Notes: generated by a model not told the origin, from the sequence alone. Counted from the stretch's first letter, positions 11,813 to 33,600 are shown. The stretch: DNA of 62,983 nucleotides from Candidatus Zambryskibacteria bacterium RIFOXYC1_FULL_39_10 (GCA_001824275.1 MHWW01000009.1:1-62983), one strand, 5' to 3'. A program made the numbers and translations.

Positions 11813-11895
11813 GCGTCGGTGGTAGAGTGGTCAATTACAACAGACTGTAAATCTGTCGGCTTCGGCCTACGGAGGTTCGAATCCTCCCCGGCGCA
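11813..11895 (+). tRNA. tRNA-Tyr(GTA)
   Basis: GCGTCGG/CCGGCGC, ACAGA-CTGTAAA-TCTGT, long variable arm, TTCGAAT. Confidence 0.94.
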
Positions 11896-12069
11896 CAAAA
11901 AGAAAAACCCTGAAAAGGGCTTTTTTCTTTTTGTGCGCCGAGCAAGCAAACTGCTTTGCTTGCGTGGGAGGATGAGAAAAGGTTCTCCCATATTTTTGAG
12001 AATTTTATTCGAAAAAATGGGAAACCTGTACTGACCCTGTAAGGGTCGAAATTCCTCCCCGGCGCACAA
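11896..12069 (+). repeat. Structured tRNA-trailer element (copy after tRNA-Tyr)
   Basis: Antisense of the tRNA 3' end (11931-11940), AAA-CTGC-TTT hairpin (11942-11963), ends in a duplicate of the tRNA 3' end (CCTCCCCGGCGCACAA). Confidence 0.75.
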
Positions 12070-12072
12070 TTT

Positions 12073-14766
12073 TTAAGAAACCGTTTCAGAGGAAATAGCA
12101 TCGAGGATTGAAGCTTCGATGATAGAGCCCCGACGGCCTTTTTTGATTTCAAAAGCTAGTTCGCCTGCTTTGACAGTAATATAAACAACACCACCCTTTA
12201 AAATACTTTTAGAAATAATCATAGAGGCAATAGGATTTAATATTTTATTTTGAATAACCCTTTTTAGTGGTCTAGCACCGTATTGCGGATTGTATCCCTC
12301 CTTGGCTAAATATTCGAAAGCCTCATCACTAAGTTCAAGTGAAATTTCTTTTATAACTAATCTTTCTCGAACCAAATCAATTTGGATTTTAACAATCTCT
12401 CTAATCGCCTCGAGTGGCAAAACATCGAAGATGACAATATCATCAACACGGTTTAAAAATTCTGGGCGGAAGAAGTCTTTCATTGCCTCCATTACTTTTT
12501 CTTTTATATCAGTGTAAGCGCCACCTTTTTGTTCTCTATCACCAAATCCCATCTTTTCCATCTTATCTATATAGTTTGCTCCAATGTTTGAGGTCATCAC
12601 AATGATTGTGTTTTTGAAGTTTACGGTGCGCCCTTTTGAGTCAGTCAGTCGCCCATTGTCCAAAACTTGTAGGAGCACATTGAAAACTTCAGGGTGAGCC
12701 TTTTCAATTTCATCAAAAAGTACGATGGAGTACGGTCGGTGACGCACCATTTCGGTAAGTCCCCCGCCTTCATCAAAACCAACATAACCAGGGGGAGAGC
12801 CTATGAGTTTAGAGACTGAATGCTTTTCCATAAATTCGGACATATCAACCCTGATCAATGCCTTATCGTCATTGAACATAAATTCAGCCAAAGCTTTGGT
12901 AAGTTCGGTTTTACCAACTCCGGTAGGCCCCAAGAAAATGAAAGAGCCGATTGGTTTGTTTGGGTCAGAAATGCCGGCGCGAGAACGCTTGATGGTGTCT
13001 GAAATTTTTTGCACCGCTTCATCTTGACCGACAATCCTTTTTTTCAATTCGTCTTCCATACGACCGAGCTTTTCGGCCTCTTCTTCAAGCATTCGAGAAA
13101 CTGGGATGCCGGTCCATTTGGCGACAATATTGGCAATATCATTTTCGGTAATTTCTTCAGTCAAAATACGCCTTGAGCTTTGCAATTTTTTGAGTTTTTT
13201 GACATTGCTGTCAAGCTCTTTCTCAAGAGTAGGGATAACGCCATATCGCACTTCAGCGGCTCGTCCAAGATCTGCTTGCACTTCGGCAGCTTCCGCTTCT
13301 TGACGCGATCCTTCTAATTCCTTTTTTATTCTTTTGATTTCGCCCACTACCTCTTTTTCGTTTTTCCATTTCAAATCAATCTCTGAAGTTTTTTCTTTCA
13401 AATCAGCAATTTCTTTTTCAATATCTAGCAAACGAGTTTTTAGTTTTGTATTTTTGCCGTTCACCTCTTTTTTGAGCGCCTCCCTTTCAATTTCCAATTT
13501 CATTATTTTGGAATTGGTCTCTTGCAAAATTACTGGCATATTTTCCAAAGAAATTTTGAGGTGACTTGCCGCTTCATCAATGAGGTCAACGGCCTTGTCA
13601 GGCAAAAATCTATCAGCAATATAGCGTGCCGAAAGATTGACCGAAGCTTTGATGGCATCGTCAGTAATATGGACGCCGTGATAAAGCTCATACTTTTCCT
13701 TCAATCCACGAAGGATGGTGATGGCATCATCAAGTGAAGGTTCGTTGACAAAAACCGGCTGGAATCTGCGAGTAAGCGCTGGGTCCTTTTCAATATATTT
13801 TTGATACTCTTTGATGGTAGTTGCGCCTATTGCTCTGAGTTCGCCTCGTGCAAGCGGAGGCTTAAGCATATTGGAAGCATCGAGTGACCCTTCGGCCGAA
13901 CCTGCGCCAACCAATGTATGAATCTCGTCAATAAAGAGAATTATTTTGCCATCTGACTTTTCAATTTCTTTAATTATATTTTTGAGTCTTTCTTCAAATT
14001 CTCCACGATATTTGGTACCAGCCACCAAAAGCCCCAAATCAAGAGAAACGATTTCCTTGTCTTTCAAAGATTCGGGTGCATTGCCCGAAATCATCCTGAT
14101 AGCGAGACCTTCAGCGATAGCAGTTTTACCCACACCCGCTTCTCCAATAAGAATAGGATTGTTTTTAGTGCGTCTGGAAAGTATTTGAATGATACGAGAA
14201 ATTTCTTCATCTCTTCCGATGACAGGGTCAAGTTTATTTTCGCGAGCAAGTTTGGTAAGTGAGCGAGTAAATTTAATTAAATTTTTATTTTTATGTGCAC
14301 CTTTATTGTCAGTCATGCGACCTTGTTTTATCTCTTGAATTAGAAACAGAACTTTTTCTTTATCAATTTTAAATCGAGCCAAAATGTCTCTGGCCTGACT
14401 TGGTACGTCTAGACATGCCAAAAACAAATGTTCGGTAGATACAAATTCATCGCTCATTCCTGCTGCCACCTTGGCTGATTGTTCAATCACGTGAGCGAGC
14501 TCAGGAGTGAGGAAAATTTGATAAGAAGGTGAGACAGTATTACTACCAACTCCGCCCTCCATGGCCTCAAAAAGCGAGTCGGTGAGGAGGATGGTATCAA
14601 CCTCCATTTTGTCTAAAATCGAAGCGACAATACTCTCTTCCTGAAGAATCAGAGCTGACAATAGGTGAAGCGGGCCAACATGATTTTGACCACGTTCAAT
14701 AACCAGCTCATGAGCTTTCCTGATCACCTCTTTGGCTTTGGTTGTAAAATTATTAAATGGCGTCAT
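12073..14766 (-). CDS. clpB: ATP-dependent chaperone ClpB
   Basis: [19 protein letters not shown], long coiled-coil middle domain, [23 protein letters not shown]. Confidence 0.92.
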
Positions 14767-14843
14767 ATGGCACTATTATAGCAGAATTTCACTCAAAATC
14801 AAAACAAAATTCGACCCCACCCCGTCCCGCTAAAGCGAGACTG

Positions 14844-14868
14844 CCCCTCACCTTGCGAAGGTGAGGGG
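14844..14868. repeat. Palindrome related to the miniature-element family
   Basis: CCCCTCACCTTGCGAAGGTGAGGGG perfect hairpin. Confidence 0.6.
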
Positions 14869-14884
14869 GAAAATAAAATAAAAA

Positions 14885-15186
14885 AGAAAGACCGCGTCCT
14901 CGGAGAGGCGCGGTCTGGGGGTGGGATTTGTCAGAGCGTTCTAGTTTTTCGCTCTCAAGCCTATGGTGGCGTCCCCTGGTTTTGGAAAAAAATGAGAGTT
15001 CGGACTCTCCTTGAAGCATGTGGCTACTAGAGGAGCCACACACCCACAGGATTTTCACCTGTTACGGATTAAGTTAAAGAGCTGTTTGCTGGGGATAAAT
15101 TCAAGTCCACACCCCAGCTTGTGGACAATTAGTATAACAGTAATAGTGTTCTGATTTAAGTATAGCATAACCACAAACTTTGTCAA
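14885..15186 (-). other. Promoter- and terminator-bounded structured region without a convincing ORF (candidate sRNA)
   Basis: TTGACA(15186-15181)-N16-TATACT(15164-15159) with TG; terminator stem 14889-14916 plus T-run on the minus strand; internal hairpins. Confidence 0.4.
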
Positions 15187-15273
15187 GCAAAATTGCATTT
15201 TGTAAAGGCAAATTACAAAAAATGGCTCTGTTGAGCCATTTTTTGAATACTGATTATTTTTTGAAAACCTAAA

Positions 15274-16092
15274 TCACTTTACCAATTCTTCGAGAGCTTT
15301 GGGAACAGCTGATTTTATGAGATTTGAAGGAATGTAAGAATATTCAGTGTCAGTATCAATTAGCGCCGCCTCAAGACCAATCACCTCTCCCGAAAGATTG
15401 AGAGCAGGACTGCCCAAATGAGCTTTGGAAACTTTTATATCGGAATAAATAACTGAGACTGAAACTTTGTCTTCACCATATTTAAGCTGATATACTCTGC
15501 CAATTGACGCCGCATTGGAATCTCGGCCACTTATTGCTACGAGAGTCTGCCCTATCTTCACCCCATCTGAATTACCAAATACTGCGGGGTAGAAAACTGG
15601 CTTAGGATTTTCAGTTTTAGGAAAATCGGTTTTTATAAATATCAAACCATTTTCTTTATCTACAAAAGTTTTTCCAGAAGAATAAATTCGGCCATCAGAA
15701 AAAGAAATTTTAAAAGAAGAAGCTGCACTATAAGTTCGGAGGTCAGCAACCACAGTACCATCAGCTGAGACCACTAACCCTAACCCTGCAAAAATTTCTG
15801 AGCCGTCACTGCCAATAGTTTTAAGCCTTACTATAGACTTTTCATTCTTGGCGATTGATTCAAGCACCCGATCTTCTTCGTTTACAACCACCGTGGTAGT
15901 GATTCTCTCTGGCTCACCAGGCTCAGTCACTACTCGTTCAATAGTTTTTTCTACTACTCGATTTATTTGCTGAGTCACCTCTACCGGCGCTTCAGAAAGT
16001 AAAGTAAAAGTAATAATGCCGGTGGCAATCGATGTCACAAAAGTGATGAGCAAAACCAGAAGTATGAGTTGATGTTTTGATAGATCTTCCAT
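15274..16092 (-). CDS. Membrane-anchored trypsin-like (HtrA-type) domain protein, probably catalytically inactive
   Basis: N-terminal TM helix; GSPALNLSGEVIGL without the GNSGG Ser motif; no His motif. Confidence 0.65.
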   Translation of the reverse strand: MEDLSKHQLILLVLLITFVTSIATGIITFTLLSEAPVEVTQQINRVVEKTIERVVTEPGEPERITTTVVVNEEDRVLESIAKNEKSIVRLKTIGSDGSEIFAGLGLVVSADGTVVADLRTYSAASSFKISFSDGRIYSSGKTFVDKENGLIFIKTDFPKTENPKPVFYPAVFGNSDGVKIGQTLVAISGRDSNAASIGRVYQLKYGEDKVSVSVIYSDIKVSKAHLGSPALNLSGEVIGLEAALIDTDTEYSYIPSNLIKSAVPKALEELVK

Positions 16093-16128
16093 TAATTATA
16101 TTTTACTAAAATTAAAAATAAAAAACAA

Positions 16129-17361
16129 TCATCGGTGGACAATTTTTTTAAGAGCAGAAATGAATTTATCTAGGTCAGATTTTTTGGTAGAGCGACCAAG
16201 AGTGATGCGCAGGGATGACGAACCACAATTTTTATTACCCAAACTTTCAATAACATAGGAACCATTTTCCAATGAAAGTGTGTGGCAGGCTGAAGCGGCC
16301 GAAACAGCGAAACCAAGTGTGTCTAGCTTAATAACTAAAAATTCTGAGTCTAATTTATTAGACTCATCCCGCGAAGCTTTAGCGAAGTGGGAAAGGCAAA
16401 TATTAATATTATTTGGAAGGCGATTTTCCAAACCACCATTTAGAGACAGCTGGGAAATTTCCCCGCCCGCAACGCTCTCGCTTGCGAGGCGGGCGGGTTT
16501 TAAAATTTTGGCAATAGCATAATCACGCAATTTTGTTAAACGAGCTGACTCCTTCTCTCTCATCTCAGTTGCAATTTCCAAAGCTTTGGCAAGCCCCACT
16601 GCCCCTGGCACATTTTCGGTGCCAGATCTTAAACCCCCTTCTTGCCCACCACCGAAAACAATTGATTCAATAGGAACTGAGTGTCTGACTGCCAAGATCC
16701 CCACCCCTCTCGGCCCATACATTTTAATACCGTCAAGAACCAATAGATCCGCTCCCAAACTTTCTAAAGAAATATTTTCATAGAGGACACTTTGACAGGC
16801 ATCTACCAGCAGGTATGCCCTGCTGGAATTTTCAATTTTCAATTTAAAATTTTCAATTACTTCTTTAATTTTCCGGATCGGCTGGATGGTACCAATTTCG
16901 TTGTTCCCATGTTGGATGACAACCAAAACTGTATTTTCTTTTATTTCTTTTTTTATTGATTCTGGACTGATCAAGCCCTTTTCGTTTGGCGAAATAAACG
17001 AGACTTCAACTTCTTTATTTTTTAGCAAATGTTTAATGGGTTCTAGTACTGCCGGATGTTCAATGGTTGAAGTTATAATGTGAGGAATTTTGGAATTACT
17101 TTTTTTGTATTTAAAAACTACTCCAAAAATTGCCAGATTCAATGATTCGGTGCCACCACTGGTAAAAAATATTTCATTTGCTTTGCAATGCAAAATCCGA
17201 GCAATTTTAATTCTCGCCTCTTCTAAAACTCTTTTTGCTATTTCTCCTTCTTGATGCAAAGAAGATGGGTTGGCCCAAAATTTTTGAGCTTTTTCCATCT
17301 CTTGTGCGACTTTCTTATCAATCGGAGTAATAGCGGCATAATCCAAAAACACCCTTGACAT
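16129..17361 (-). CDS. Cysteine desulfurase (IscS/NifS family)
   Basis: FLDYAAIT, FTSGGTES, EHPAV, NNEIGTIQ, KMYGPRG (PLP Lys), SAASAC (catalytic Cys). Confidence 0.88.
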   Translation of the reverse strand: MSRVFLDYAAITPIDKKVAQEMEKAQKFWANPSSLHQEGEIAKRVLEEARIKIARILHCKANEIFFTSGGTESLNLAIFGVVFKYKKSNSKIPHIITSTIEHPAVLEPIKHLLKNKEVEVSFISPNEKGLISPESIKKEIKENTVLVVIQHGNNEIGTIQPIRKIKEVIENFKLKIENSSRAYLLVDACQSVLYENISLESLGADLLVLDGIKMYGPRGVGILAVRHSVPIESIVFGGGQEGGLRSGTENVPGAVGLAKALEIATEMREKESARLTKLRDYAIAKILKPARLASESVAGGEISQLSLNGGLENRLPNNINICLSHFAKASRDESNKLDSEFLVIKLDTLGFAVSAASACHTLSLENGSYVIESLGNKNCGSSSLRITLGRSTKKSDLDKFISALKKIVHR

Positions 17362-17389
17362 ACTTGGATAATACCATATTTAGTGTATA

Positions 17390-17884
17390 ATGTTCCATAT
17401 GTTTATAGATTGGAACTTAGTTGTTTTTTTGTTGCCTTTTATTGGCCTTTTGATTTCGCTTGTAGCTCTCGGCTTTGCTATTGCAATGCATATGAGAGTG
17501 ACAAAGATATTTAGGAGCGCCAACTCTGCTGATATTGAAAAGCTTCTTAAACTTCATTCTAAAACTTTAGAGGACTTCGTCAGGTTTGAGGCCCAATCAA
17601 CTTTATATATGAAGTCCCTTGATGAAAGGATAAAGAAAAAAATGATGAGCGCAGAGACACTCCGGTTCAACCCATTTCAAGGTGAGGGCGCAGGTGGCAA
17701 TCAAAGTTTTTCATCAGTCTTTGCCGATGAAGAAGGTACTGGAGTCGTCATAACCTCTATGCACACACGAGAGAGAACAAATGTTTTTGCTAAACCCTTG
17801 AAAAATTGGCAAAGTGAGTTTGAACTTACCGAAGAAGAAAAAACATCAATAAAAAATTCAAAACTAAATGGAGCAAAAAAATAA
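17390..17884 (+). CDS. DUF4446-family protein
   Basis: N-terminal TM helix; RFNPF..GGNQSFS, GVVITSMHTRE..VFAKP. Confidence 0.75.
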   Translation: MFHMFIDWNLVVFLLPFIGLLISLVALGFAIAMHMRVTKIFRSANSADIEKLLKLHSKTLEDFVRFEAQSTLYMKSLDERIKKKMMSAETLRFNPFQGEGAGGNQSFSSVFADEEGTGVVITSMHTRERTNVFAKPLKNWQSEFELTEEEKTSIKNSKLNGAKK

Positions 17885-19364
17885 AAACATAACAGTCAGG
17901 CCGCCAGTCGTTGTCGTCGTGGGTCATATCGACCACGGCAAATCTACTCTGCTTGATTACATTAGGAAAACCACAACTACCGAAAAAGAGGCGGGTGGCA
18001 TCACTCAGCACATTTCAGCTTATGAGACCGAACTTGAAATCAGCGGTCAAAAGAGAAAAATGACATTTTTGGATACTCCAGGTCACGAAGCATTTTGTTC
18101 AATAAGAGAGCGCGGAACTAGAATAGCCGACATCGCAGTTTTGGTAGTTTCAGCCGAAGACGGAGTCAAGCCACAGACAGTTGAGGCCCTGAATTGTATC
18201 ACCAACGACTCTGTCCCCTACATCGTAGCACTAAACAAAATTGATAGACCAAACGCTGATATCAATCGGGTCAAACAAGACCTTGCAGAAAATGGAGTAC
18301 TGGTTGAAGGTTGGGGCGGAAGTGTGCCAATCGTGCCCCTTTCAGCAAAAAACGGCGAAGGTGTGCCTGAACTTTTGGAAATAATTGCTTTGCAGTCCGA
18401 TCTTGAAGAATTAACTGGTGATCCATCGGTGACCGCCGAAGGTTTTGTAGTTGAAAGCAACCTCAACCCCAAACAAGGTATTGCCGCGACTTTAATTATA
18501 AAAAATGGGGTAATGAAAACAGGCACATTTATCGCTAGCGCTGGCGCTTATGCCCCTATCCGCGCAATCTTAAATTACAAAGGAGAAAATTTGAAAGAAG
18601 CTAGCTTCTCAAGTCCGGTTAAAATAGTGGGTTGGAACACCACTCCAATGGTTGGCCAAGAATTTAAAACTTTCGTAAAAAAGGAAGATGCGATAGCGTT
18701 TGCAGGTGAAAACAAAAATACCCAGACTGATACGACTCATGAGGCCGCATCAGAAGGGCAAGCTCGATTAGAAATTGTTTTAAAGGCTGACACTCTCGGC
18801 TCGTTAGATGCGGTAGAGCACGAGCTCAAAAAACTCTGTAATGAAAAAATAGCTGTGAGAATTATATCAAAAGGTATTGGTTCAATTTCAGAAAAAGATA
18901 TCAAAACAGCAAATATAAAAAGTAGTTTGATTTTAGGATTTAATGTGGACAGTGACAAAATCGCAGAAATGCTTGCATTGAGAGATGGCGCCAATGTCAA
19001 AACATTTAAAATAATCTACGAGCTTGTTGATTATATAAAAGAAAAAGTTAAAGAGGCCACACCGGTTGAAACAATTGAGACAGTCACCGGCTCGGCCAAA
19101 ATACTGCGAGTATTTAGTAAAAATAAAGACAAACAAGTAGCGGGCGGCCACATAGAAGATGGCGAAATAAAATCAGGTAGTTTGATTAAAATTTACCGCC
19201 GAGAGGCAGAAATTGGTGAGGGCAAAATAAAAGAACTTCAGGCTCAAAAAGTTAAGACCGCCATAGTCAAAGATAAGCAGGAATTTGGTATGTTTTTAGA
19301 ATCAAAAATAGAATTAACTGAGGGGGATGTCATAAAGGCGACATCATTAATTAGACAAGAATAA
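17868..19364 (+). CDS. infB: Translation initiation factor IF-2 (short, no N-terminal domain)
   Basis: RPPVVVVVGHIDHGKSTLLD, GGITQHI, FLDTPGHEAF, LNKID. Confidence 0.93.
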   Translation: MEQKNKNITVRPPVVVVVGHIDHGKSTLLDYIRKTTTTEKEAGGITQHISAYETELEISGQKRKMTFLDTPGHEAFCSIRERGTRIADIAVLVVSAEDGVKPQTVEALNCITNDSVPYIVALNKIDRPNADINRVKQDLAENGVLVEGWGGSVPIVPLSAKNGEGVPELLEIIALQSDLEELTGDPSVTAEGFVVESNLNPKQGIAATLIIKNGVMKTGTFIASAGAYAPIRAILNYKGENLKEASFSSPVKIVGWNTTPMVGQEFKTFVKKEDAIAFAGENKNTQTDTTHEAASEGQARLEIVLKADTLGSLDAVEHELKKLCNEKIAVRIISKGIGSISEKDIKTANIKSSLILGFNVDSDKIAEMLALRDGANVKTFKIIYELVDYIKEKVKEATPVETIETVTGSAKILRVFSKNKDKQVAGGHIEDGEIKSGSLIKIYRREAEIGEGKIKELQAQKVKTAIVKDKQEFGMFLESKIELTEGDVIKATSLIRQE

Positions 19365-19371
19365 CTTATCA

Positions 19372-19413: not shown

Positions 19414-19423
19414 TAAAAACAAA

Positions 19424-19810: not shown

Positions 19811-19838
19811 GCAAAAAATTGCTAATCTTAAAATGTTC

Positions 19839-19979: not shown

Positions 19980-20450
19980 ATGAAAAGGAGTTGGTCCCAG
20001 AAACAATTAATTGAGGCTGTAAAGATTTCAAAAAGCTATAGACAAGTAATTCATCTGCTTGGGTTGAAACCTGCTGGCGGAAATTATGACCAAATTAAAA
20101 AGTATATAAAGGAATACTCTCTAAGCACAAAACATTTTACAGGAAAGATTTGGAACAAAGGATTAAAATTTGAATTTAAACCTCATATTCCTCTTAAAAA
20201 AATTTTAGTAGCGAATAGCACTTATCAAAGTTTCAAGTTGAAAAAAAGGTTATTTTTAGCTAAACTGAAAGAACCAAAATGTGAAGAGTGCGGTTGGGCT
20301 AAAATGTCTGTTGATGGTAGAGTTCCTTTGGAACTAGATCATGTTAATGGAAATAGGCATGATAATCAAATAGATAATTTGAGAATCCTTTGCCCAAATT
20401 GCCATAGTCTGCAGTCAACACACAGAGGAAAGAATATAAGAAAAAAATAA
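19980..20450 (+). CDS. HNH endonuclease
   Basis: CEECG..LELDHVNG..NLRILCPNCH; between tRNA-Cys and tRNA-Leu. Confidence 0.88.
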   Translation: MKRSWSQKQLIEAVKISKSYRQVIHLLGLKPAGGNYDQIKKYIKEYSLSTKHFTGKIWNKGLKFEFKPHIPLKKILVANSTYQSFKLKKRLFLAKLKEPKCEECGWAKMSVDGRVPLELDHVNGNRHDNQIDNLRILCPNCHSLQSTHRGKNIRKK

Positions 20451-20451: not shown

Positions 20452-20536
20452 GCTCGAATGGCGGAATTGGTATACGCGCAACACTTAAAATGTTGTCCCG
20501 CAAGGGTTGTGGGTTCGACTCCCACTTCGAGCACCA
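20452..20536 (+). tRNA. tRNA-Leu(TAA)
   Basis: GCTCGAA/TTCGAGC, CAACA-CTTAAAA-TGTTG, variable arm, CCA encoded. Confidence 0.92.
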
Positions 20537-20561
20537 AATTATTGTAGAATAATTTGAAGAT

Positions 20562-20634
20562 CCGCTCATAGCTCAGCTGGTAGAGCAGCTCCCTCTTAAG
20601 GAGATGGTCCCAGGTTCGATTCCTGGTGAGCGGA
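20562..20634 (+). tRNA. tRNA-Lys(CTT)
   Basis: CCGCTCA/TGAGCGG, loop CT-CTT-AA, CCAGG-TTCGATT-CCTGG. Confidence 0.9.
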
Positions 20635-20772
20635 CAAGCCAAAAAATTCAAACTGCTTTGAATTTTTTCGGACTTGTCCGAGACGGAGTCATGTTTTTCC
20701 AGCAGGAAAAACAGACGAGTCGGGGTCGCGGAAATTTTGTTTTGACGAAAACAAAATTATCCGTGACGACAA
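20635..20772 (+). repeat. Structured tRNA-trailer element (copy after tRNA-Lys)
   Basis: AAA-CTGC-TTT hairpin 20641-20668, TTGTCCG antisense to the tRNA end, TGTTTTT/AAAAACA hairpin, GACG-loop hairpin 20733-20758. Confidence 0.75.
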
Positions 20773-20788
20773 GTTTGGCTTAAAGTAT

Positions 20789-20869: not shown

Positions 20870-20909
20870 CAAAATTTGAAAAAATATTTTATTATGTTAT
20901 AATGGAAAC

Positions 20910-21247
20910 AGGTTTTCATTCCGACAACTACTCCGACGTAAAGTCGGAGAGGAAAGTCCGAACACATGCTCATTTAATTGAGGAAGGTAGCGGGTAACGC
21001 CCGTCGTCCGCGAGGATAGAGGTGCGAACAGTGACGCCAAAGCCGAAAGGCTGAGGGTCCCTTATTTATGAAAATATATAAGGGATAATCTGATAGAAAT
21101 ATCAGGGTGCAACGGTTAAATCCTTACTTATGTGCAAGGCCGTACTCTAGCAGAAATGTTAGTTTGTGCCGCTTGAGTCTTTGAGCAATTTAAGACCTAG
21201 ATAAATTGTTGTTTAAACCAGAATTCGGCTTATGAGAATGAAAATCT
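20910..21247 (+). ncRNA. rnpB: RNase P RNA
   Basis: GAGGAAAGTCC and CAGAATTCGGCTTAT conserved elements; terminal P1 pairing AGGTTTTCATTC/GAATGAAAATCT. Confidence 0.92.
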
Positions 21248-21254
21248 AACAAAT

Positions 21255-25870: not shown

Positions 25871-25874
25871 AAAA

Positions 25875-26315: not shown

Positions 26316-26337
26316 GCTAGTTATTTTTTCTTTTTTT

Positions 26338-26377
26338 CTCCCCCCTCCTTCGCAAGGAGAGGGGTGGGGGTGAGGTC
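26338..26377. repeat. Miniature palindromic element fragment
   Basis: CCCCCTCCTTCGCAAGGAGAGGGG..GGGGGTGAGG. Confidence 0.55.
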
Positions 26378-26383
26378 GCTCTT

Positions 26384-27667
26384 TTATTGCGGCAACAAAG
26401 CCGAAAGTTCGTTTTGGGACCGCATTATTGCTTCGCCCGTCCTAGCCCTGCCACTTGTTATTGATTCTATCATATTCTTAAATATTGAATTGGTCTCAGT
26501 GGGTGATGGATCAAGCCAACCCTTGGCCCTTATCGCGCTGTCGTTAAAAATAACTTCGTAGGCATTGATTGATCTTTGACTGAGCAAATCACGCCTAACC
26601 GGAGGCAGTTTGAGGGTGCTACTTATAGCTTTGGCTCCTGCAGTGCCGGACAAAATGGCCGCAACTCCAAAAGCGCCGTTTGGATTTTTGGATGATTTCG
26701 TGACAGCAAAGGCATTGAATTTGGCGATAGAGACATTGGTTCCGCCTTCGCGGGAAACCGGCACCATCGCTACATCAAAATTTAGATTAGGATTTTTTAG
26801 CTGTAGAGTAGATATTTCACTGGCAAAACCAAAATACAAGGCCAAATCGCCACTTAGAAAATAATTAGTTGAGTTGGACAGTGAGCGATTCCAAGAATAT
26901 GAAGTTTTGGATGGATTACCAAATTCGGTATAAAAGTTGACCGCCGCCTCAGCTGGCACAGTAGGTTTGTTAAATGTACCTGTAAAAACTACTGCCACTT
27001 TGGAGCCATTCCAAGTGGTCACCGGTGTACCAGCCTGCATTGCCAGGTTCAAAACAATCTCTTTAGCGTGAGAGATGTTGGCATACTCTCCAAACGCAAC
27101 CGCGCTTCTTGATATATTTAGTGCTCCATCTTTTTTAGTTATAGTGGTAGCTAGATTATAAAATTCATCCCAATATTTTGGCGGTTCAGTAAGTTTGGCG
27201 TCAGTGAAAATAGAGCGATTCCAATACATGACAAGTGGATCGGCCAATACTGGCAAAGCTAGTACCCCATCAGGAGAGAGATAAATTTCTGCTCCTTCAA
27301 TAAATGAATCCCTAAATTGTCTTACGGTGTAAACATTGTAAGGTATAGCAAATATTTTATTTTGGTGTTTTATTATTTTGTCCGATGGCAACATAAAGAG
27401 GTCTGGTCCGCTACCCGAAGCAAGCGCCTCTATAAAATCTGTATCGAAATTTGCTTCGGTTTTTTCGACATACTCCACAGTAAGCTCTTTGCTTTGATAC
27501 AAAGTGGTCTCTTTTATAATATTATCAAAACTGCTTTTAGGAATAGTGCCCCAGACCACGACCGACACCGCGTTTTGTGAGCTACCTTTATAAGCTGAGA
27601 AAACAATTACACCAACAATTAAAAATAGAACAAAAACTCCTATAAGGATTACTTGAAATCTTGTCAT
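26384..27667 (-). CDS. Membrane-anchored extracellular solute-binding protein (carbohydrate SBP-like)
   Basis: N-terminal TM helix, VVVWG, LASGSGPDLF, LVMYWNRSIF, WDEF. Confidence 0.78.
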   Translation of the reverse strand: MTRFQVILIGVFVLFLIVGVIVFSAYKGSSQNAVSVVVWGTIPKSSFDNIIKETTLYQSKELTVEYVEKTEANFDTDFIEALASGSGPDLFMLPSDKIIKHQNKIFAIPYNVYTVRQFRDSFIEGAEIYLSPDGVLALPVLADPLVMYWNRSIFTDAKLTEPPKYWDEFYNLATTITKKDGALNISRSAVAFGEYANISHAKEIVLNLAMQAGTPVTTWNGSKVAVVFTGTFNKPTVPAEAAVNFYTEFGNPSKTSYSWNRSLSNSTNYFLSGDLALYFGFASEISTLQLKNPNLNFDVAMVPVSREGGTNVSIAKFNAFAVTKSSKNPNGAFGVAAILSGTAGAKAISSTLKLPPVRRDLLSQRSINAYEVIFNDSAIRAKGWLDPSPTETNSIFKNMIESITSGRARTGEAIMRSQNELSALLPQ

Positions 27668-27731
27668 ACTTATATTATACAACATAACGGAAACAGCTCT
27701 ATCAAAACCTGTGGACTGCCATTGATTTTGA

Positions 27732-27757
27732 TTGCCGAGATGGGCATCTTCTCGGCA
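27732..27757. repeat. REP-like hairpin, left flank of RAYT-2
   Basis: TTGCCGAGATGGGCATCTTCTCGGCA; exact reverse complement at 28464-28489. Confidence 0.9.
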
Positions 27758-27776
27758 ATTTGTTATAATTTATTTT

Positions 27777-28460
27777 ATGAACAATAGAGATTATAGAAAA
27801 TCTGGACCAAATTCCTTTCACCATATCTATAATAGAGGAAATGATAAAATGAATATATTTTTAGATAAAAATGATTATTATTCCTTTCTTGGATTATTAG
27901 AAGAAAATATATTAGGCGAAAAAGAACATTTTTCTTCAAAAATCTTTGAGCCCCTACCCAAATCTTCTCATCTGATAGGTAAAAAATACGTCCGAAAACT
28001 ACTACCATCAGGAAGTTTTGAAATTATATGCTTTTGTCTAATGCCCAATCATTTCCATTTATTAGTAAGACAGGTTAAGGAATTAGAAATAGGAAAATTG
28101 TTAAGCAAAGTTTGCACAAGTTATTCTAAAAGATTTAACAAAAAATATGAGCATATTGGTCATATATTCCAAGATCAATTTAAATCTGTTCTTGTAGAAG
28201 ATAATAATCAATTACTTTATCTATCCGCATATATACATTCAAATCCAAAAGTTAGTGCACTTGTTAAAAATATTGAGGACTGGAAATTTAGTAGTTATTT
28301 AAATTTTATAGAAAAGGAACAATACAAGCTGTGTAGTAAAAATATTGTTTTAGACCAATTTAACGATATTAAAAATTATAAAAAATTTGTTGAAGATGGT
28401 GTGGAAAAGATAAAATCAATAAAAGACTTAAACTACGCACTTCTTGACCAAGAATCCTAA
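27777..28460 (+). mobile_element. REP-associated tyrosine transposase (second)
   Basis: HHIYNRG, CLMPNHFHLL, YIHSNP, WKFSSY. Confidence 0.88.
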
Positions 28461-28463
28461 AAC

Positions 28464-28489
28464 TGCCGAGAAGATGCCCATCTCGGCAA
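28464..28489. repeat. REP-like hairpin, right flank of RAYT-2
   Basis: Inverted copy of 27732-27757. Confidence 0.9.
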
Positions 28490-28501
28490 ATTACTTTTTA
28501 A

Positions 28502-30976
28502 TTACAAGCAGATGAATGAGGCGATGGAGTCGCCGTCGCGAAGCTTCATAATTCGGACGCCTTGAGTAGAGCGGCCGAGAGATGGGATTTCGGAAAGACC
28601 TAAGCGGATGACTTGACTCTTTTTGGACATTGCGACCGCCTCTTCTTCCTCGCCAGTTATAACCGCTGAAGCGATGATTTCACCGGTTTTAGCCGTTACA
28701 TTGCTCGTCTTTATGCCCGAACCGCCACGATTTTGGATTTTGTATTCTTTAATCCCTGTCTTTTTGCCATAACCGTTGGCCCCCATAGTAAGCAGAGCGG
28801 CATCCTTTTCCACTTCTTTTGGAACTGGGTGAGCGCCTATTACCCTATCGCCTTTTTTGATTTTGATGAGTCTCACTCCACCAGCAGTACGGCCCATTTC
28901 ACGCACATCTGATTCTTTAAATCTGATTGATTGACCTTTGGTTGAAACCACAATACACGAATCGCCCTTGACTACTGCCGATACTGAAATCAATCTGTCG
29001 CCTTCGGAAAGTTTGATGGCGATGATACCACTTGTCCTCACATCGTGAAAACTTGATGCCGAAACTTTTTTGCCTGTGCCGTCGGCCGTCACCATCATAA
29101 GAGAGAGCTCGTTGTCGTCTTTCAAATTTTTTGGCATTGGCAAGATTGAAGTCACTTTTTCACCTTCGGAAAGAGAAATGAAATTCATAATAGACTTGCC
29201 TCGAGTCGCTCTTTTACCTTCAGGTAATTCATACATTTTGATTTGATAAGCCTTGCCTCGATCGGTAAAGAAAAGTAAATCAGAATGTGTGCTGGCAGTG
29301 AGAAAATTGGTGACAAAATCTTCTTCTTTGGTATCCAAATCAACCACACCGACTCCACCTCTCTTTTGTTTGCGATATTCATCTGGACTTGTCCTTTTGA
29401 CATAACCTCCGGCAGTCAAAATCAAAGTATTTTCTTCATCAGCAATCAAATCCTCCATCGACAAAACTTTGACTCCCCCTTTTATCACTTTGGTCCTTCT
29501 GTCATCACCATATTTTTCTGAAATATCAGAAAGCTCTTTTTTAATTATAGAAAGAATTTTCTTGGGATTGGCCAAAATTTCTCGGAGTTCGCCTATAAGT
29601 TTTTGGACTTCACGAAGCTCATCTTCAATCTTTTGTCTCTCTAGACCTGCCAATTTTTGCAAGCGCATCTCCAAAATAGCATTGGCCTGCAACTCAGAAA
29701 ACTTAAACTCCTTCATCAAATTGGCCCGAGCGGTATCAACATCTTTAGATTTTTTGATGAGTTTAATTATTTCATCAATATGGTCAAGGGCCTTTTTGAG
29801 CCCGAGCAAAATGTGCTCTCTGGCCTCCGCCTCTCTCAAGTCAAACTCGGTTCGTCTTTTAACCACAATCTGACGATGTTTAATAAATTCCTCTAAAATA
29901 GTTTTTAGTGAAAGTGTCTGCGGTACGCCGTCAACTAGGGCCACGAGGTTTAAGTGAAATGTGTCTTCAAGTTGAGTATGCTTGTAAATAAAATTCAAAA
30001 CTTTTTGTGGATAACTACCATTTTTCAAATCAATCACCACTCTGATATCTTTGGTTGATTCATCCCTGATGCCTTTGATGCCGTCAATCTTTTTTTCGCG
30101 CACGAGCTCAGCGATTTTCATTATCAAATCTGCTTTGTTTACTCGGTAAGGAATAGAAGTAATAATAATTTGAGAATTATTTTTGTCTTCAACTATCTCA
30201 GCTACTCCTCGTGCTACGATACCGCCGCGTCCGGTGGCATAAGCATGACTGATATCTTTAGAATTAAAAATAATGCCACCGAGCGGAAAGTCTGGCCCTT
30301 GAACAAACTGCAATAAATCTTCGGTCGTCGCGTCTTTGTTGTCTATGAGATAAGCAGTAGCGTCTATCACTTCGCGCAAATTGTGAGGTGGAATATTGGT
30401 AGCCATACCAACCGCAATACCCAAAGTTCCATTTAATAAAAGTTGAGGGGCAGTAGCCGGCAAAACTGAAGGCTCTTTTTTGGTGGCGTCGTAGTTTGGT
30501 ACCCAATCAACTGTTTCTTTATTTATATCACGCAAAAGCTCTGAAGCGACTTTGCTCATCTTGGCTTCGGTATAACGCATAGCGGCGGCACTGTCACCAT
30601 CAACTGAACCGAAGTTTCCTTGGCCGATAACCAAGGGGTATCGCATACTGAAGTCTTGAGCCATTTTGACCATAGCTTCATAGGCGGCACTGTCACCGTG
30701 AGGGTGATAATTTCCTAAAACCTCTCCCACTACCGCTGCTGACTTACGCGTCTTGGCTGAGGCTGAGAGGCCCATAGTGTGCATAGCATAGAGGATACGG
30801 CGGTGGACAGGCTTCATGCCGTCTCGCACGTCAGGGAGCGCTCTGTCAGTAATGACAGACATAGCATAGTCAATGAAGGACTTCTTCATCTCACTCACAA
30901 TTGAGCGCGAAATAACGCCCACATGAGTGTTTATTTCCCCTTTTTCATCCTGATTTTTATCTTCTTTCTTAGGCAT
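28502..30976 (-). CDS. gyrA: DNA gyrase subunit A
   Basis: [30 protein letters not shown], GyrA-box QKRGGVG, C-terminal blades. Confidence 0.96.
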
Positions 30977-31019
30977 TTACATCTTAATTATAGCAAATTT
31001 TAGCTTTCTATACAAGCGG

Positions 31020-31113
31020 ATAACTCACCCTAAATCCCTCTCTTACAACAAGAGAGGGACTTCTGAAGCCCCCTTCCCTTGTTGTAAGGGAAGGGGGTGG
31101 GGGGATGAGTTAT
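31020..31113. mobile_element. MITE-like palindromic element (intergenic copy)
   Basis: ATAACTCACCC...GGATGAGTTAT imperfect terminal inverted repeats, two internal hairpins; near-copy at 38631-38727. Confidence 0.8.
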
Positions 31114-31430
31114 TTTCTCTCGTAAACTTCAATACTACTTATGAAAGGCACAAAAACTGAGGAGAATGAATCTTTGAGTTCTTGATATTGCTTGCCTATC
31201 TCATCAAAAGCGGCTCCAAAAACCTGTTTGGTATTTTCAATTGGCGAAGGTACGGCATCGGCAGAAACAACATTTGCCACCTGACTAGATGATTTTTGTG
31301 ACGCTAGATTAGCTTCACCACCAAAACTCAAATAACCTTTGTAAAAAGCGAAGCTAAACAATATTAAAATTGAAAGAGTAGTTGCCAAACCAAATGCCCA
31401 TTTGCCTCTATAACTCTCGTCCCTCTCCAT
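31110..31430 (-). CDS. Hypothetical membrane-anchored protein
   Basis: N-terminal TM helix; stop codon coincides with the element end. Confidence 0.6.
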   Translation of the reverse strand: MERDESYRGKWAFGLATTLSILILFSFAFYKGYLSFGGEANLASQKSSSQVANVVSADAVPSPIENTKQVFGAAFDEIGKQYQELKDSFSSVFVPFISSIEVYERK

Positions 31431-31467
31431 TATTGAATTATATTTTTTGATAAGCATTTATTTAAAT

Positions 31468-32112
31468 TTATTGAGTATCAAGAACAATAATTTCGCCCTC
31501 TTTACCCTCCAAATCTTTTTTCTTGACGGTCAACTTTTCTACTGATTTTAAACCCTCGCTACTACCCTCTTTCAAAAAGGCTTTGAGGGATTTATCATCA
31601 TAATTCATAGGTATAATAATAGAAGGTTCCAAAGAAACCGCAAATTTATAAGCATCACTTGGGCTGAGTGTACCCTCACCACCAATCGGCACAAAGAGTA
31701 TGTCTACTCCATCAATTCCTTCTTTAGTTTCTTTTGGAATATTTGCTTCTCCTAACGCACCCAAAAAACACAAATTCATATTTTCAAAATTGACTGTATA
31801 TATAGTATTGATTTTGTTGGTTGCCACTTGCTCTGAGGAATTCGAAGGGTAATTTGAGACACTAGAAAGCCCTTTTATAAAAACCCCCTGAATCTCATAC
31901 TCGCCCGGCCCGTTTATAATGAAAGCTTCTTTGTCGCCACGGTTAACTTGGTCTACCCCGTTCATATCGGGGTGGTTTAAGGAAATCAAGGCAATATCAG
32001 CCCCAAAATTATTGGCTTTAAATTGTGACTTTTTGGATACAGGGTCAAAAGCCAAAACAGTGTCCCCAAATTGGACCTTAAAAGATTGTGCTCCCTGATA
32101 TGAAATTATCAT
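31468..32112 (-). CDS. MBL-fold hydrolase-like protein with degenerate metal motif
   Basis: GPGEYEIQGV, CFLGALG, DILFVPIGG, IIIPMNY; SLNHPDMN replaces the HxHxDH-like motif. Confidence 0.7.
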   Translation of the reverse strand: MIISYQGAQSFKVQFGDTVLAFDPVSKKSQFKANNFGADIALISLNHPDMNGVDQVNRGDKEAFIINGPGEYEIQGVFIKGLSSVSNYPSNSSEQVATNKINTIYTVNFENMNLCFLGALGEANIPKETKEGIDGVDILFVPIGGEGTLSPSDAYKFAVSLEPSIIIPMNYDDKSLKAFLKEGSSEGLKSVEKLTVKKKDLEGKEGEIIVLDTQ

Positions 32113-32212
32113 CCCGTTAGAGTTTTAAATTAATTAATTGGCTCGCATATAACAAGCATGCAGACATGATATCATTTTTTTAGCAATCGGTAAATATAAA
32201 ACTCTAACGGGA

Positions 32213-32614
32213 TCATTCGGTAGTCACACCATCAAAATCGGCCTCATTTGCCATAGCTTCATCACGAGTAGCTCGTACTATGCCATCTTTGTGGTGAGCT
32301 GGTGAATAAATAGTGTAAAGTTTTAGATCCTCACTTTCGGAAACATTCATCACATTATGCTCGGCTCCAGCTGGCACAATAACTGTGTCTCCATCTGAAA
32401 CTTCATACTCGGTGCCATTTACCACTACTTTACCCTGACCTGCTTCAAAACGGAAAAATTGGTCATTATCTTCATGAATTTCCATCCCGATTTCGCCACC
32501 AACTGGTAGTGACATCAAAACCAATTGCATGTGGAGGCCGGTATAAAGCACTTTGCGGAAATTGGTATTTTCGGTTGTTAAATTTTCAATATTTGAATGA
32601 TATCCTTTTTTCAT
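32213..32614 (-). CDS. Cupin domain protein
   Basis: QLVLMSL..GEIGMEIH..DQFFRFEAG, VPAGAEHNV, LYTIYSPAHH. Confidence 0.85.
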   Translation of the reverse strand: MKKGYHSNIENLTTENTNFRKVLYTGLHMQLVLMSLPVGGEIGMEIHEDNDQFFRFEAGQGKVVVNGTEYEVSDGDTVIVPAGAEHNVMNVSESEDLKLYTIYSPAHHKDGIVRATRDEAMANEADFDGVTTE

Positions 32615-32659
32615 ATTATATAAGTTAATATTAATTTAATAATCTTATCACACTTTTGA

Positions 32660-33193
32660 TTATTTAAAATCAAAAGTTTCTATAATTGTTTTATAAAACA
32701 AATCGGCGTCAAAAGGTGGTTCACCGAACATGTTTCTAGCTATTCTCACATTAGAATCTTTGCCATAAAAAACCAGCCAGTCCCAATCACCCTCTGCAAA
32801 TTTGTGACCATCTATATATAAAGAAGGATCTTGAATATATTCATAAGAAATATTTTGAGGATTTTGTTTTTTAGTCTGTGAAATGTTTTCCAAGTCAACT
32901 TTTTTCACTTCGATTGCTGGCGGCACCTCATATTCAATATCATCCGGCCAATTAAAATATATTACGCATAAATTATCATCAATTTTTTCAACATATTTAA
33001 ATTCCCAATCTTTAAAATCTGGAAATTTAAAAGAAAATTCAAAGCCTTGGCATTCAAAAGTTTTGTATTCTAAAACTTCGTTAACATTATTTTTATCAGA
33101 ATCCATATTGTTATTTTTAAAATTATTTAAATCATTTTTAAAGGCAAAAATCAAAATTAACCCCAGAATTAAAGCTCCCCAAAACCATTTCAT
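32660..33193 (-). CDS. Hypothetical membrane-anchored protein
   Basis: Start moved to MKWFWG because the ORF-track extension lies inside tRNA-Ser. Confidence 0.6.
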   Translation of the reverse strand: MKWFWGALILGLILIFAFKNDLNNFKNNNMDSDKNNVNEVLEYKTFECQGFEFSFKFPDFKDWEFKYVEKIDDNLCVIYFNWPDDIEYEVPPAIEVKKVDLENISQTKKQNPQNISYEYIQDPSLYIDGHKFAEGDWDWLVFYGKDSNVRIARNMFGEPPFDADLFYKTIIETFDFK

Positions 33194-33214
33194 ATATAGT
33201 GATTTTAACATATT

Positions 33215-33304
33215 TGGCGGAAGTGGGAGGATTCGAACCTCCGATAAGGTTTCCCCTATACCGCTTTTCGAGAGCGGCGCTTTCGACCACTCAGCCACAC
33301 TTCC
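33215..33304 (-). tRNA. tRNA-Ser(CGA)
   Basis: GGAAGTG/CACTTCC, CCGCT-CTCGAAA-AGCGG, long variable arm, G73, CCA encoded. Confidence 0.93.
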
Positions 33305-33365
33305 AATTGTCTAAAACTATCATTTTTTTGCATTATTATCAAAAAATGTTATATTTTATGAGCGG

Positions 33366-33389
33366 CTTGCCATGAGCGAAGTCGAATGG
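33366..33389. repeat. Short repeat abutting tRNA-Glu
   Basis: CTTGCCATGAGCGAAGTCGAATGG; related copy CTTGCTCTGAGGAATTCGAAGGG at 31827-31849. Confidence 0.55.
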
Positions 33390-33459
33390 CCCTATCGTCT
33401 ATCGGTTAGGACGGCTGCTTTTCAAGCAGCAAAGCGCGGTCCGACTCCGCGTAGGGTCA
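33388..33459 (+). tRNA. tRNA-Glu(TTC)
   Basis: GGCCCTA/TAGGGTC, GCTGC-TTTTCAA-GCAGC, T-loop TCCGACT (C instead of the usual T55). Confidence 0.88.
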
Positions 33460-33600
33460 CAAATTATGTAATACAAATAAACTGCTTTATTTGCGGATAA
33501 TTCGTGAAGATAGAAGCATGTTTTTCTGAGCCCAGAAAAACAGCTGAGTCCGGGGCTGGAAATTTCATTTTTGACGAAAAATGAAATATTGTGGCTCACA
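33460..33600 (+). repeat. Structured tRNA-trailer element (copy after tRNA-Glu)
   Basis: AAA-CTGC-TTT hairpin 33474-33493, TGTTTTT/AAAAACA hairpin, GACG-loop hairpin 33562-33587. Confidence 0.75.

Follow-up and report, generated by a model that had tools for sequence, protein, structure and literature searches.

The three folded trailers behind the tRNA-Tyr, tRNA-Lys and tRNA-Glu genes in a 62,983-nt stretch of DNA from Candidatus Zambryskibacteria bacterium RIFOXYC1_FULL_39_10 (GCA_001824275.1, MHWW01000009.1:1-62983; the whole stretch is called the window below), together with a further copy at 50.7 kb, are probably non-autonomous, protein-free insertion cassettes of ~100-200 nt with an antisense address. 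Such an element does not merely trail the tRNA gene: it inserts into its 3' part and supplies a replacement end. An initial annotation of the window, made from the sequence alone, had described the three trailers as one family and read them either as a non-autonomous tRNA-targeting element or as a conserved RNA that affects the processing of the tRNA precursor.

Folded trailers with two types of core

The existence of three structured non-coding elements behind these tRNA genes is borne out. The tRNA genes lie where the initial annotation had placed them, and the trailers fold much better than shuffled sequences (z = -9.4 for Tyr, -7.2 for Lys and -5.0 for Glu), the predicted folding being better for the + strand than for the - strand. 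The limits proposed for the elements did not hold and were re-set to 11899-12069 (Tyr, 171 nt), 20633-20767 (Lys, 135 nt) and approximately 33461-33595 (Glu). The trailers contain no plausible genes, and at 135-171 nt they lack room for one. The statement that they belong to no named family also stands: an Rfam search with the three trailers revealed no family above threshold, permissive scans (E <= 10) yielded noise only, and the ribozyme and group I/II intron models gave no match apart from a weak antisense hit of drz-agam-1 (13 bits). Elements follow three of the ten tRNA genes in the window, and relatives bear them at other subsets. The tRNA-Lys gene is part of the series Leu(TAA)-Lys-[element]-Leu(TAG), and the open reading frames (ORFs) adjoining the elements are those of ClpB, a fibre-like protein, HNH, infB and rbfA.

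The AAA-CTGC-TTT hairpin, reported to be shared by all three trailers with outer stems that differ and yet stay paired, is present in each of them at the re-read coordinates (the AAACTGCTTT hairpin; Table 1). This hairpin, termed here hp1 (AAACUGCUUU), is the sole module common to the Tyr, Lys and Glu copies. A further AAACTGCTTT match at 27528 has no flanking stems and was taken as chance. The Lys and Glu copies also share, as described before, a TGTTTTT/AAAAACA hairpin, the segment GAGTC(C)GGGG and a hairpin with a GACG loop, and a 21-nt pattern common to both occurs twice against 0.04 occurrences expected. The Tyr copy, on the other hand, is not homologous to them beyond the small hairpin and has a different core. 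The window elements are of two core types, A (Lys, Glu) and B (Tyr). Type A is a three-way junction composed of the guide, GACGGAG, a hairpin, CGAGUCGGGG and a hairpin ending with GUGAC, followed by the target. The type B core is unlike type A and ends in CUGUAAG. In the Lys copy the trinucleotide CGA lies between the guide and GACGGAG, and hairpin B has a GACG loop and ends with GTGAC. The Glu copy is degenerate, with GATAGAA for GACGGAG, GTGGC for GTGAC and a weak closing helix.

Empty sites and patchy occupancy

All three trailers are insertions, and for the Tyr copy the empty site is exact. Evidence for the Tyr and Lys copies comes from X14, a run of a 2025 metagenome, the contigs of which include a close relative of the window organism. 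One of them matches 11813-11881 without mismatch and continues directly at 12053-12137, skipping 171 nt, and its joint is ambiguous over exactly the 17-nt repeat that bounds the Tyr element. A second contig agrees with 20528-20635, then carries 10 different letters and rejoins the window sequence at 20763, so that at least 127 nt of the Lys element (20636-20762) are missing, the right end of the gap being uncertain because the spacer of the relative has diverged.

Comparison with the syntenic loci of four Zambryskibacteria relatives, reached via RbfA homologs, reveals that occupancy is patchy among close relatives. The tRNA-Tyr gene has no element in L119 (where the tRNA is identical), L121 and L125, and is followed in L123 and L124 by two tandem type A units placed after the same hp1. 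The spacer between tRNA-Lys and tRNA-Leu(TAG) measures 6 nt in L119, 16 nt in L121, 15 nt in L125, 95 nt in L123 and 153 nt in the window; that of L123 holds a truncated copy, in which hp1 and the arm are kept and the core is absent. The tRNA-Leu(TAG) gene, empty in the window, is occupied in L119, L123 and L125, where the copies belong to type B or type A, and tRNA-Glu has no element in the relatives L374 and L376. Presence and absence at orthologous tRNA genes, proposed earlier as a check, is thus found for Tyr, Lys and Glu alike. The tRNA cluster of the window is a hot spot for variable genes. As a separate observation, tRNA-Tyr is convergent with clpB in the window, L123 and L124, all of which bear elements, and co-oriented with it in L119, L121 and L125, which are empty, indicating that the gene was inverted between relatives.

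The antisense arm and the rebuilt gene end

Read along the sense strand, a cassette consists of a segment S, a hairpin that is usually terminator-like, an optional hp1, an arm A, a conserved folded core of one of at least two types and a segment S'. S is the replacement gene end, S' is the displaced original end, and A, which is 6 to >17 nt long, pairs equally with either. The general form of hp1 is AGCAAAC-NN-CUUUGCU. The usual sites in tRNA genes are the T loop or the last acceptor bases. The cut point lies where the last helix of the core stacks on the A:S helix (GNN^S, the caret marking the cut); in a handful of copies the cut is preceded by G-N (GTT^, GCC^, GCG^, GCA^, and GAC^ at the element end). 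The direct repeat measures 4-28 nt across the family and varies with the position in the gene.

The copies in the window illustrate this arrangement. As noted before, the Tyr and Lys copies carry the reverse complement of their own tRNA ends, in Tyr as TTGTGCGCCG and GGGAGGA, split by a hairpin, and in Lys as GGACTTGTC, and the Tyr copy closes with an exact duplicate of 17 nt, TCCTCCCCGGCGCACAA (11882-11898 and 12053-12069). The sequence after S is unlike the native flank that follows S'. S, the apex hairpin and the first part of the arm make up a near-perfect palindrome of 51 nt, and in the alternative predicted fold pairing of the arm with the second S closes a three-way junction. The 3' arm of the small hairpin GACCC-UGUAA-GGGUC continues into the T-loop-like GGGTCGAAAT. 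An identical hp1 occupies the same position in the tRNA-Tyr element of L123. The Lys element opens with GACAAG, the rebuilt last bases of the tRNA. The end repeats of the Lys and Glu copies comprise only 6-8 nt, compared to 17 nt exact in Tyr, because these elements entered at the very end of the tRNA.

In type A copies generally, the bases upstream of a 3-nt spacer before GACGGAG pair with the bases directly after GTGAC. The mean number of contiguous pairs is 3.55, as opposed to 1.6 with swapped partners (none of 500 swaps reaches the observed value), in a set that contains about one third chance hits. The arm is target-specific, with CGAWTCC for T loops (junction GGTT^CGA), GACAAG, CAAAAAC and CGCCA; acceptor-end arms occur at tRNA-Lys and tRNA-Trp, and the CAAAAAC arm belongs to the last zinc-ribbon of a topoisomerase-like ORF (an identity read from the translated ORF end only).

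In copies residing in protein-coding genes the reading frame runs through the last ~25 codons, which are borne by the element, to a stop codon and the hairpin; the arm and the core come next, and the displaced second C-terminus stands last. The differences between the in-frame and the displaced C-termini are mostly synonymous: in L164 the first 13 codons, taken from the printed codons, contain eight synonymous and no non-synonymous changes, and L160 has eight synonymous and six non-synonymous ones. This indicates that one of the two copies evolved as coding sequence in another lineage, and hence that the cassette carries the gene end along. In most copies elsewhere, too, a terminator-like hairpin stands between the gene and the core.

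Family scans and covariation

A search of the species-genome collection with the type A pattern GACGGAG-N8-38-CGAGTCGGGGTCG (20 bases) retrieved at least 120 loci, mostly from Patescibacteria (Saccharibacteria, Nomura-, Kaiser-, Taylor-, Yonath- and Lloydbacteria, Paceibacterota, Minisyncoccia), the matches outside this group being G+C-rich chance hits. A shorter pattern of 16 bases (GACGGAG..GAGTCGGGG) had given nearly only chance hits on viral contigs and was lengthened for the large scans. A tRNA end on the same strand lies at most 400 nt upstream, mostly 45-85 nt, in 59 of the 123 type A matches listed, and the tRNA-linked copies involve at least 17 tRNA species. For the type B pattern, run on metagenomes, 63 of the 122 matches listed are tRNA-linked, with 15 tRNA species.

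We then used covariance models of type A (R1) and type B (R2). In a first set of 100 loci R1 finds 104 matches, and in a second set of the same size 52; the second set includes loci fetched with the type B pattern, which means that both cores live in the same genomes. Pattern scans and models together gave more than 200 recoveries of both cores. In the window R1 matches only the Lys and Glu copies (98 and 63 bits, respectively), both of which are in its seed, and R2 matches the Tyr copy, also in its seed, and a weaker, probable new copy at 50.7 kb (42.6 bits, E = 6e-7), which adjoins the stop codon of a minus-strand glutaredoxin-like ORF.

Covariation, which the initial annotation had suggested testing in this way, is strong. 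In the alignment of 104 type A sequences 90.6% of pair cells hold standard pairs. Shuffling lowers this share to 66%, none of 500 shuffles attaining the observed value, and sliding the partners lowers it to 35-41%. In 33 of the 34 pairs both sides have changed. A particular G.U pair is preserved in 94 of 103 sequences, and G.U pairs outnumber A.C mismatches by 201 to 41, from which it follows that the tRNA-sense strand is the folded one. In type B, pairing amounts to 93-98% in the long and the small hairpin, and double changes are frequent there; the closing helix of this type was excluded, being only 52% paired as aligned, owing to indels.

The elements are not confined to tRNA genes. The 3' ends of protein-coding genes and other non-tRNA sites, such as that of the 50.7-kb copy, are entered as well, hence the strict tRNA linkage that had been expected fails. 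Of the earlier reading as a non-autonomous tRNA-targeting element, the essence is upheld by the empty sites, the hundreds of copies behind many tRNAs, the covariation and the lack of an Rfam match, but it was too narrow, as there are two cores, sites in protein-coding genes and other non-tRNA positions, and insertion with a replacement end. We rejected hp1 as the module that defines the family, since it is optional and occurs in only ~5-9% of the tRNA-linked copies elsewhere. In the literature searched we found no description of this element family from Patescibacteria.

Two groups of loci are listed here as side observations. Good type A cores stand behind non-tRNA sequence in L128 (6751-6846, 58.5 bits) and L187 (2872-2969, 51.7 bits), both binned as Elusimicrobia (55-66% G+C), which suggests either that the family extends beyond Patescibacteria or that these contigs are mis-binned. 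In the groundwater contig L265 tRNA-Lys is followed by two type B units in tandem and tRNA-Cys by one more (1955-2310 and 3082-3200), all with the AAACTGCTTT hairpin, and a tRNA-like 5' fragment split by a G+C hairpin lies at ~2345-2400.

Table 1. Features of the window discussed in the text
Feature	Position	Strand	Description
Y1_Tnp gene, first	104-799		IS200-like/RAYT-like; paralog of the second, 45% identical
Stand-alone reverse transcriptase (RT) gene, RVT_1	4836-5786		Downstream of tRNA-Leu(CAA), upstream of miaA
tRNA-Tyr(GTA)	11813-11896	+	ARAGORN and Rfam; target of the type B copy
Tyr S	11882-11898	+	First 17-nt repeat copy TCCTCCCCGGCGCACAA; spans the last base of the T loop, the 3' strands of T stem and acceptor, and 2-3 nt more
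Tyr element, type B	11899-12069 (equivalently 11882-12052)	+	171 nt with one repeat copy
Tyr apex	11899-11930	+	Terminator-like hairpin AAAGAAAAACCC TGAAAA GGGCTTTTTTCTTT
Tyr A1	11931-11940	+	Antisense arm, part 1: TTGTGCGCCG, complement of CGGCGCACAA
Tyr hp1	11941-11965	+	GCAAGCAAA-CUGC-UUUGCUUGC; interrupts the antisense arm
Tyr A2	11966-11972	+	Antisense arm, part 2: GGGAGGA, complement of TCCTCCC; then TGAGAA
Tyr core, type B	11973-12052	+	Long hairpin (..AUUUUUGAG..GAAAAAAU..), UGUACUGA, small hairpin GACCC-UGUAA-GGGUC
Tyr S'	12053-12069	+	Second 17-nt repeat copy; contiguous with the native downstream flank
HNH endonuclease ORF, first	19980-20450		Free-standing; flush against a tRNA gene
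tRNA-Lys(CTT)	20562-20635	+	ARAGORN and Rfam; target of the type A copy
Lys element, type A	20633-20767	+	135 nt; GCG^GACAAG ... GTGAC^GACAAG
Lys hp1	20641-20668	+	AAAAAAUUCAAA-CUGC-UUUGAAUUUUUU
Lys guide (A)	20670-20678	+	GGACTTGTC; antisense to the tRNA end with the first element bases (GACAAG) and to S' (GACAAGT)
Lys core, type A	20682-20767	+	GACGGAG 20682-20688, hairpin A 20689-20715, CGAGTCGGGG 20716-20725, hairpin B 20726-20767
Lys S'	20768-20774	+	GACAAGT; continues into the native spacer before tRNA-Leu(TAG)
RNase P RNA (rnpB)	20912-21249		ARAGORN/Rfam annotation
Y1_Tnp gene, second	27732-28460		IS200-like/RAYT-like; paralog of the first
tRNA-Glu(TTC)	33388-33460	+	ARAGORN and Rfam; target of the degenerate type A copy
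Glu element (type A, degenerate)	33461-33603 including echo	+	hp1 33474-33493, GATAGAA 33509-33515, hairpin A 33516-33543
Glu element, 3' part	33544-33603	+	CTGAGTCCGGGG 33544-33555, hairpin B ending GTGGC 33556-33595, echo TCACATAT 33596-33603
HNH endonuclease ORF, second	49886-50272		Free-standing; flush against a tRNA gene
Probable fourth copy, type B core	50655-50775	+	No hp1, not tRNA-linked; antisense CCCCCTTAA 50655-50663, core 50672-50756, sense TTAAGGGGG 50757-50765; R2 match 50672-50773

Expression context, candidate movers and neighboring genes

Promoter-like sites were found for tRNA-Tyr (11765-11792) and, as a strong one, for rnpB (20876-20903), and none between the Lys element and tRNA-Leu(TAG), so that the Lys copy must be transcribed as part of the Leu-Lys-Leu precursor. 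Metatranscriptome contigs from the same study contain the rnpB of the window organism without mismatch and nothing over the element, which is weak evidence as tRNAs are not captured by such contigs; the element is present in none of the RNA runs.

As to the enzymes that could move the cassettes, the co-occurrence with an integrase, HNH or RAYT gene that had been suggested as a check was not found at the level of loci. The two Y1_Tnp enzymes encoded in the window remain candidate movers but are not supported, since tblastn detects no homolog of them in ~240 element loci of other genomes. In relatives the second of the two genes keeps its position, with an SBP gene on one side and gyrA on the other; just upstream of it lies a palindrome with 10-bp arms (ATTGCCGAGA..TCTCGGCAAT), which is unlike the element hairpins. 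The HNH genes were rejected as movers. One of these ORFs ends 1 nt before tRNA-Leu(TAA) and the other is divergent from tRNA-Phe; a 60%-identical homolog of the first is found again just before tRNA-Leu(TAA) in L265, where the order of tRNA genes is rearranged, and, being independent of elements there, it seems to be a separate free-standing endonuclease. The window ORFs tested include neither a tyrosine recombinase nor a DEDD recombinase. No DEDD recombinase gene was found within the copies read or in their vicinity either, and no integrase gene, whole or fragmentary, lies in them or beside them. A seemingly full-length element of 2.7 kb in L156 proved to contain two nested IS3 transposase sets and no dedicated enzyme.

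The tRNA-Glu(TTC) gene is the lowest-scoring tRNA gene of the window (52.5 bits); its T loop is GGTCCGACTCC, with C at the universal T55 position, where relatives have GGTTCGACTCC. Between this gene and tsaD the window has extra genes (33606-37833) in comparison to the relative L119/L374 (L374 15313-15462), namely those for a protein of 983 aa that has a Peptidase_S74 chaperone domain and for a protein with a SocA/Panacea domain, as well as an ORF of 147 aa. Located next to the tRNA pair, this block reads as an insertion.

Proposed mechanism and alternative explanations

If the trailers are insertion cassettes, the moving form would most likely be a small folded single strand, given the great stiffness to be expected of a 110-200-bp duplex circle, and this strand would most likely be sense-strand DNA. 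After circular permutation S and A would pair into a single long hairpin, the tip being formed by the "terminator" and the base by the core, and this hairpin would mimic a duplex copy of the target. A trans-acting enzyme may cut after GNN in both cassette and target and exchange the strands, the freed target strand being checked by pairing with A, which would thus serve as the address. In tRNA genes co-oriented with replication the sense strand would be the lagging-strand template, transiently single-stranded. Insertion would be harmless, because the cassette brings its own gene end and terminator, and old copies such as Glu decay. In exchange of the tyrosine-recombinase type (attC, CTX phage) the strand with the free 5'-OH is tested by pairing 3' of the cut, whereas IS608 guides read the 5' side of it. 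The complementarity of the cassettes lies 3' of the cut, on the grounds of which we rank tyrosine-recombinase-type chemistry slightly above Y1 HUH chemistry.

Several points weigh against this interpretation. No enzyme has been identified, the two Y1 genes of the window lacking homologs in the element loci elsewhere, and neither a circular nor a junction form was observed. The empty sites could also stem from deletion between S and S', as single polymorphisms give no direction, and homologous recombination of the flanks rather than active insertion could spread copies among close relatives. The alignments were fitted to the model, which inflates pairing somewhat, although the margins are large. 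An RNA would be as compatible as single-stranded DNA with the excess of G.U and with junction bases that are conserved although unpaired, and the Lys copy, being located inside a tRNA operon, is necessarily transcribed. Finally, the model does not account for the way in which a cassette gains a new address and the matching gene end together.

Some of these points would be accommodated by mobility at the level of RNA, where the core would act as a small RNA catalyst or as scaffold for an RNA-guided enzyme and the arm as an internal guide; cutting and joining at GNN^S would take place in transcripts or in DNA, and RT would provide the way back to DNA. The folding of the sense strand, with one conserved G.U pair and more G.U pairs than A.C mismatches, the invariance of the junction bases (GACGGAG, CGAGUCGGGG, GUGAC) across a phylum, the location of the cut site at a helix junction, the unavoidable transcription of the Lys copy and the stand-alone RT gene of the window are all in line with it. 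Yet most copies have a terminator-like hairpin between gene and core and lack their own promoter, scans as permissive as E <= 10 match no known ribozyme family, the metatranscriptome contigs hold rnpB and nothing over the element (itself weak evidence), and the RT gene is not linked to the copies; we consider this explanation unlikely. The probability is lower still for an immobile trailer beneficial to the host, one that folds on the tRNA precursor's 3' end and acts in processing, stability or CCA addition, or serves as a decoy in the form of a tRNA-like minihelix. In favor of it, the acceptor 3' strand can be sequestered by the arm, as in the 51-nt palindrome of the Tyr copy, the order A1-hp1-A2-core-S' topologically resembles a tRNA acceptor/T minihelix, and rrA/B/F, members of the E. 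coli tRNA-linked repeats (TLRs), are processed small RNAs that bind Hfq and CsrA (PMC8144298). Against such a role, and against the processing function put forward in the initial annotation, the same tRNA genes are free of elements in close relatives with patchy occupancy, the Glu copy is degenerate and decaying, the terminator-like hairpin usually precedes the core, the same cores are found at the ends of protein-coding genes and at other non-tRNA sites, and foreign replacement gene ends make no sense for a local regulator.

A remaining alternative, to which we attach very little probability, is that the duplicated tRNA ends are attL/attR remnants of integrase-mediated islands left after decay or deletion. 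Direct repeats of tRNA 3' ends at the T-loop sublocation are indeed the classical signature of integration, and the tRNA cluster of the window attracts variable genes. The interior of the elements is, however, a conserved fold of 85-110 nt that recurs hundreds of times with near-identical layout; integrase genes and their fragments are absent in and beside the copies, the sole 2.7-kb interior consists of two nested IS3 elements, and an antisense arm is not a feature of att scars.

Comparison with other mobile systems

The proposed cassettes combine features known from several groups of mobile elements. In attC sites and in the attP of CTX phage, pairing takes place between an inverse-core segment and a core segment that equals the target in sequence, and the folded single strand is processed by tyrosine recombinases; attC-type sites have bulged features and a variable central structure, come as direct repeats in tandem arrays, and gene-less cassettes exist. 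The elements described here resemble them in the arm that pairs with a target-identical segment, in the direct repeats and tandem arrays, in lacking genes and, under the proposed mechanism, in working as a folded single strand with bulges and a variable middle part. They differ from attC in the absence of R''/R' boxes (RYYYAAC / GTTRRRY) and in that the paired segment is target-specific and programmable, and from both systems in that the targets are gene ends and not attI or dif. IS200/IS605 elements, PATEs and REP/RAYT systems are single-strand hairpin elements without terminal inverted repeats, mobilized in trans by Y1 HUH enzymes, and in IS200/IS605 the cleavage sites and target are read via an internal guide of 4-5 nt beside the hairpin. 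The hairpins, the guide, the lack of inverted ends and the presence of two Y1_Tnp genes in the window recall the PATEs of IS200/IS605. Unlike in IS608, the guide comprises 6 to >17 nt and pairs 3' and not 5' of the cut, and the gene end is duplicated and rebuilt; no homolog of the Y1 genes lies in the ~240 element loci of other genomes.

Islands and phages that integrate at the T loop of tRNA or tmRNA genes, and also at the 3' ends of protein-coding genes, bring a replacement 3' end and leave the displaced end as a direct repeat. The cassettes use the same sublocation, form direct repeats of the 3' part and restore the gene; they are distinguished by a length of 100-200 nt, the lack of an integrase, the conserved fold and the antisense arm. 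The bridge RNA or seekRNA of IS110/IS1111 is a structured non-coding RNA with short programmable segments that match the target. The cassettes are likewise structured and have a target-matching segment, but this is a single arm as opposed to two guide loops, and no DEDD recombinase gene accompanies them beside the copies or among the window ORFs tested. Finally, miniature inverted-repeat transposable elements are defined by terminal inverted repeats and a short target-site duplication of fixed length. This class was rejected, as the ends of the cassettes are not inverted copies (GACAAGCC... vs ...CCGTGAC) and their repeat varies between 4 and 28 nt.

The closest parallel is provided by the TLRs of E. 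coli, also termed RtT RNA (Rfam RF00391; Egan & Landy 1978 and Rudd 1999, as cited in PMC8144298). They are without known function except for the three rRNA-linked members rrA/B/F, which bind Hfq and CsrA and lie between two terminators behind 5S rRNA (PMC8144298), a placement that equals the S-terminator-core-S'-terminator order of the Patescibacteria cassettes. TLRs are located directly 3' of tRNA or 5S rRNA genes, singly or in tandem, like the cassettes behind tRNAs, and their units end in 18-19 nt identical to the 3' end of the upstream gene (17 nt exact in the Tyr copy of the window). We read the Tyr, Arg and Lys loci of E. coli (K-12, ST361). Every unit at tyrT/tyrV has the antisense segment GGGGAAGG(A/G) exactly 102 nt before the 17-nt repeat, followed by TGAGAA, the same arrangement as GGGAGGA-TGAGAAAA in the Tyr copy of the window. 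The argV unit has GGGAGGAT vs ATCCTCCC, i.e. its arm differs together with its repeat and thus covaries with the target; the argZ and argQ units have one mismatch each. The lysV unit includes a copy of the gene end plus terminator and an antisense T arm, the antisense segment matching the T arm left of the junction and not S', unlike in the cassettes. The folds predicted for the E. coli units have a multi-hairpin junction that is closed by the arm. Of 5,426 complete E. coli genomes, 2,286 have the lysV unit (at least 80% query coverage), and the partial matches listed have the flanks joined in two pieces. Strain ST361 exhibits an exact empty site at lysV, where K-12 has 156 extra nt, including a copy of ~62 nt of the tRNA end and terminator with one mismatch. 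The cores themselves are unrelated in sequence: R1 and R2 reach at most 9 bits on the E. coli locus, and RF00391, which finds four units at K-12 tyrT/tyrV (133-137 bits), has no match in the window trailers at E <= 10.

The papers on TLRs that we consulted do not describe them as mobile or address-bearing, nor did we find in the literature searched any described insertion principle that combines the choice of a site by base-pairing with repair of the interrupted gene. We regard the Patescibacteria cassettes as a family undescribed in the literature searched and of a TLR-like kind, a kind that is known but unexplained. More tentatively, and with doubts prevailing, cassettes and TLRs may together be one unrecognized class of mobile elements, in which a single strand of ~100-200 nt carries an exchangeable arm that programs the insertion site. 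Were this true, insertion would be carried out by an unknown enzyme in trans or by the fold itself, the spare gene end would let essential single-copy genes tolerate it, and the class would be a compact, natural, address-directed system of DNA insertion that also explains the dual terminators behind E. coli rRNA and tRNA operons. If our interpretation holds, a large fraction of the tRNA genes in Patescibacteria bear tiny insertion cassettes, which would explain the structured trailers, duplicated tRNA ends, dual terminators and pseudo-C-termini met in the annotation of these genomes; R1 and R2 are two covariance models that recognize the elements. TLRs have been known since 1978 and are still called functionless, and the link to them makes an observation from uncultured bacteria testable in a laboratory strain.

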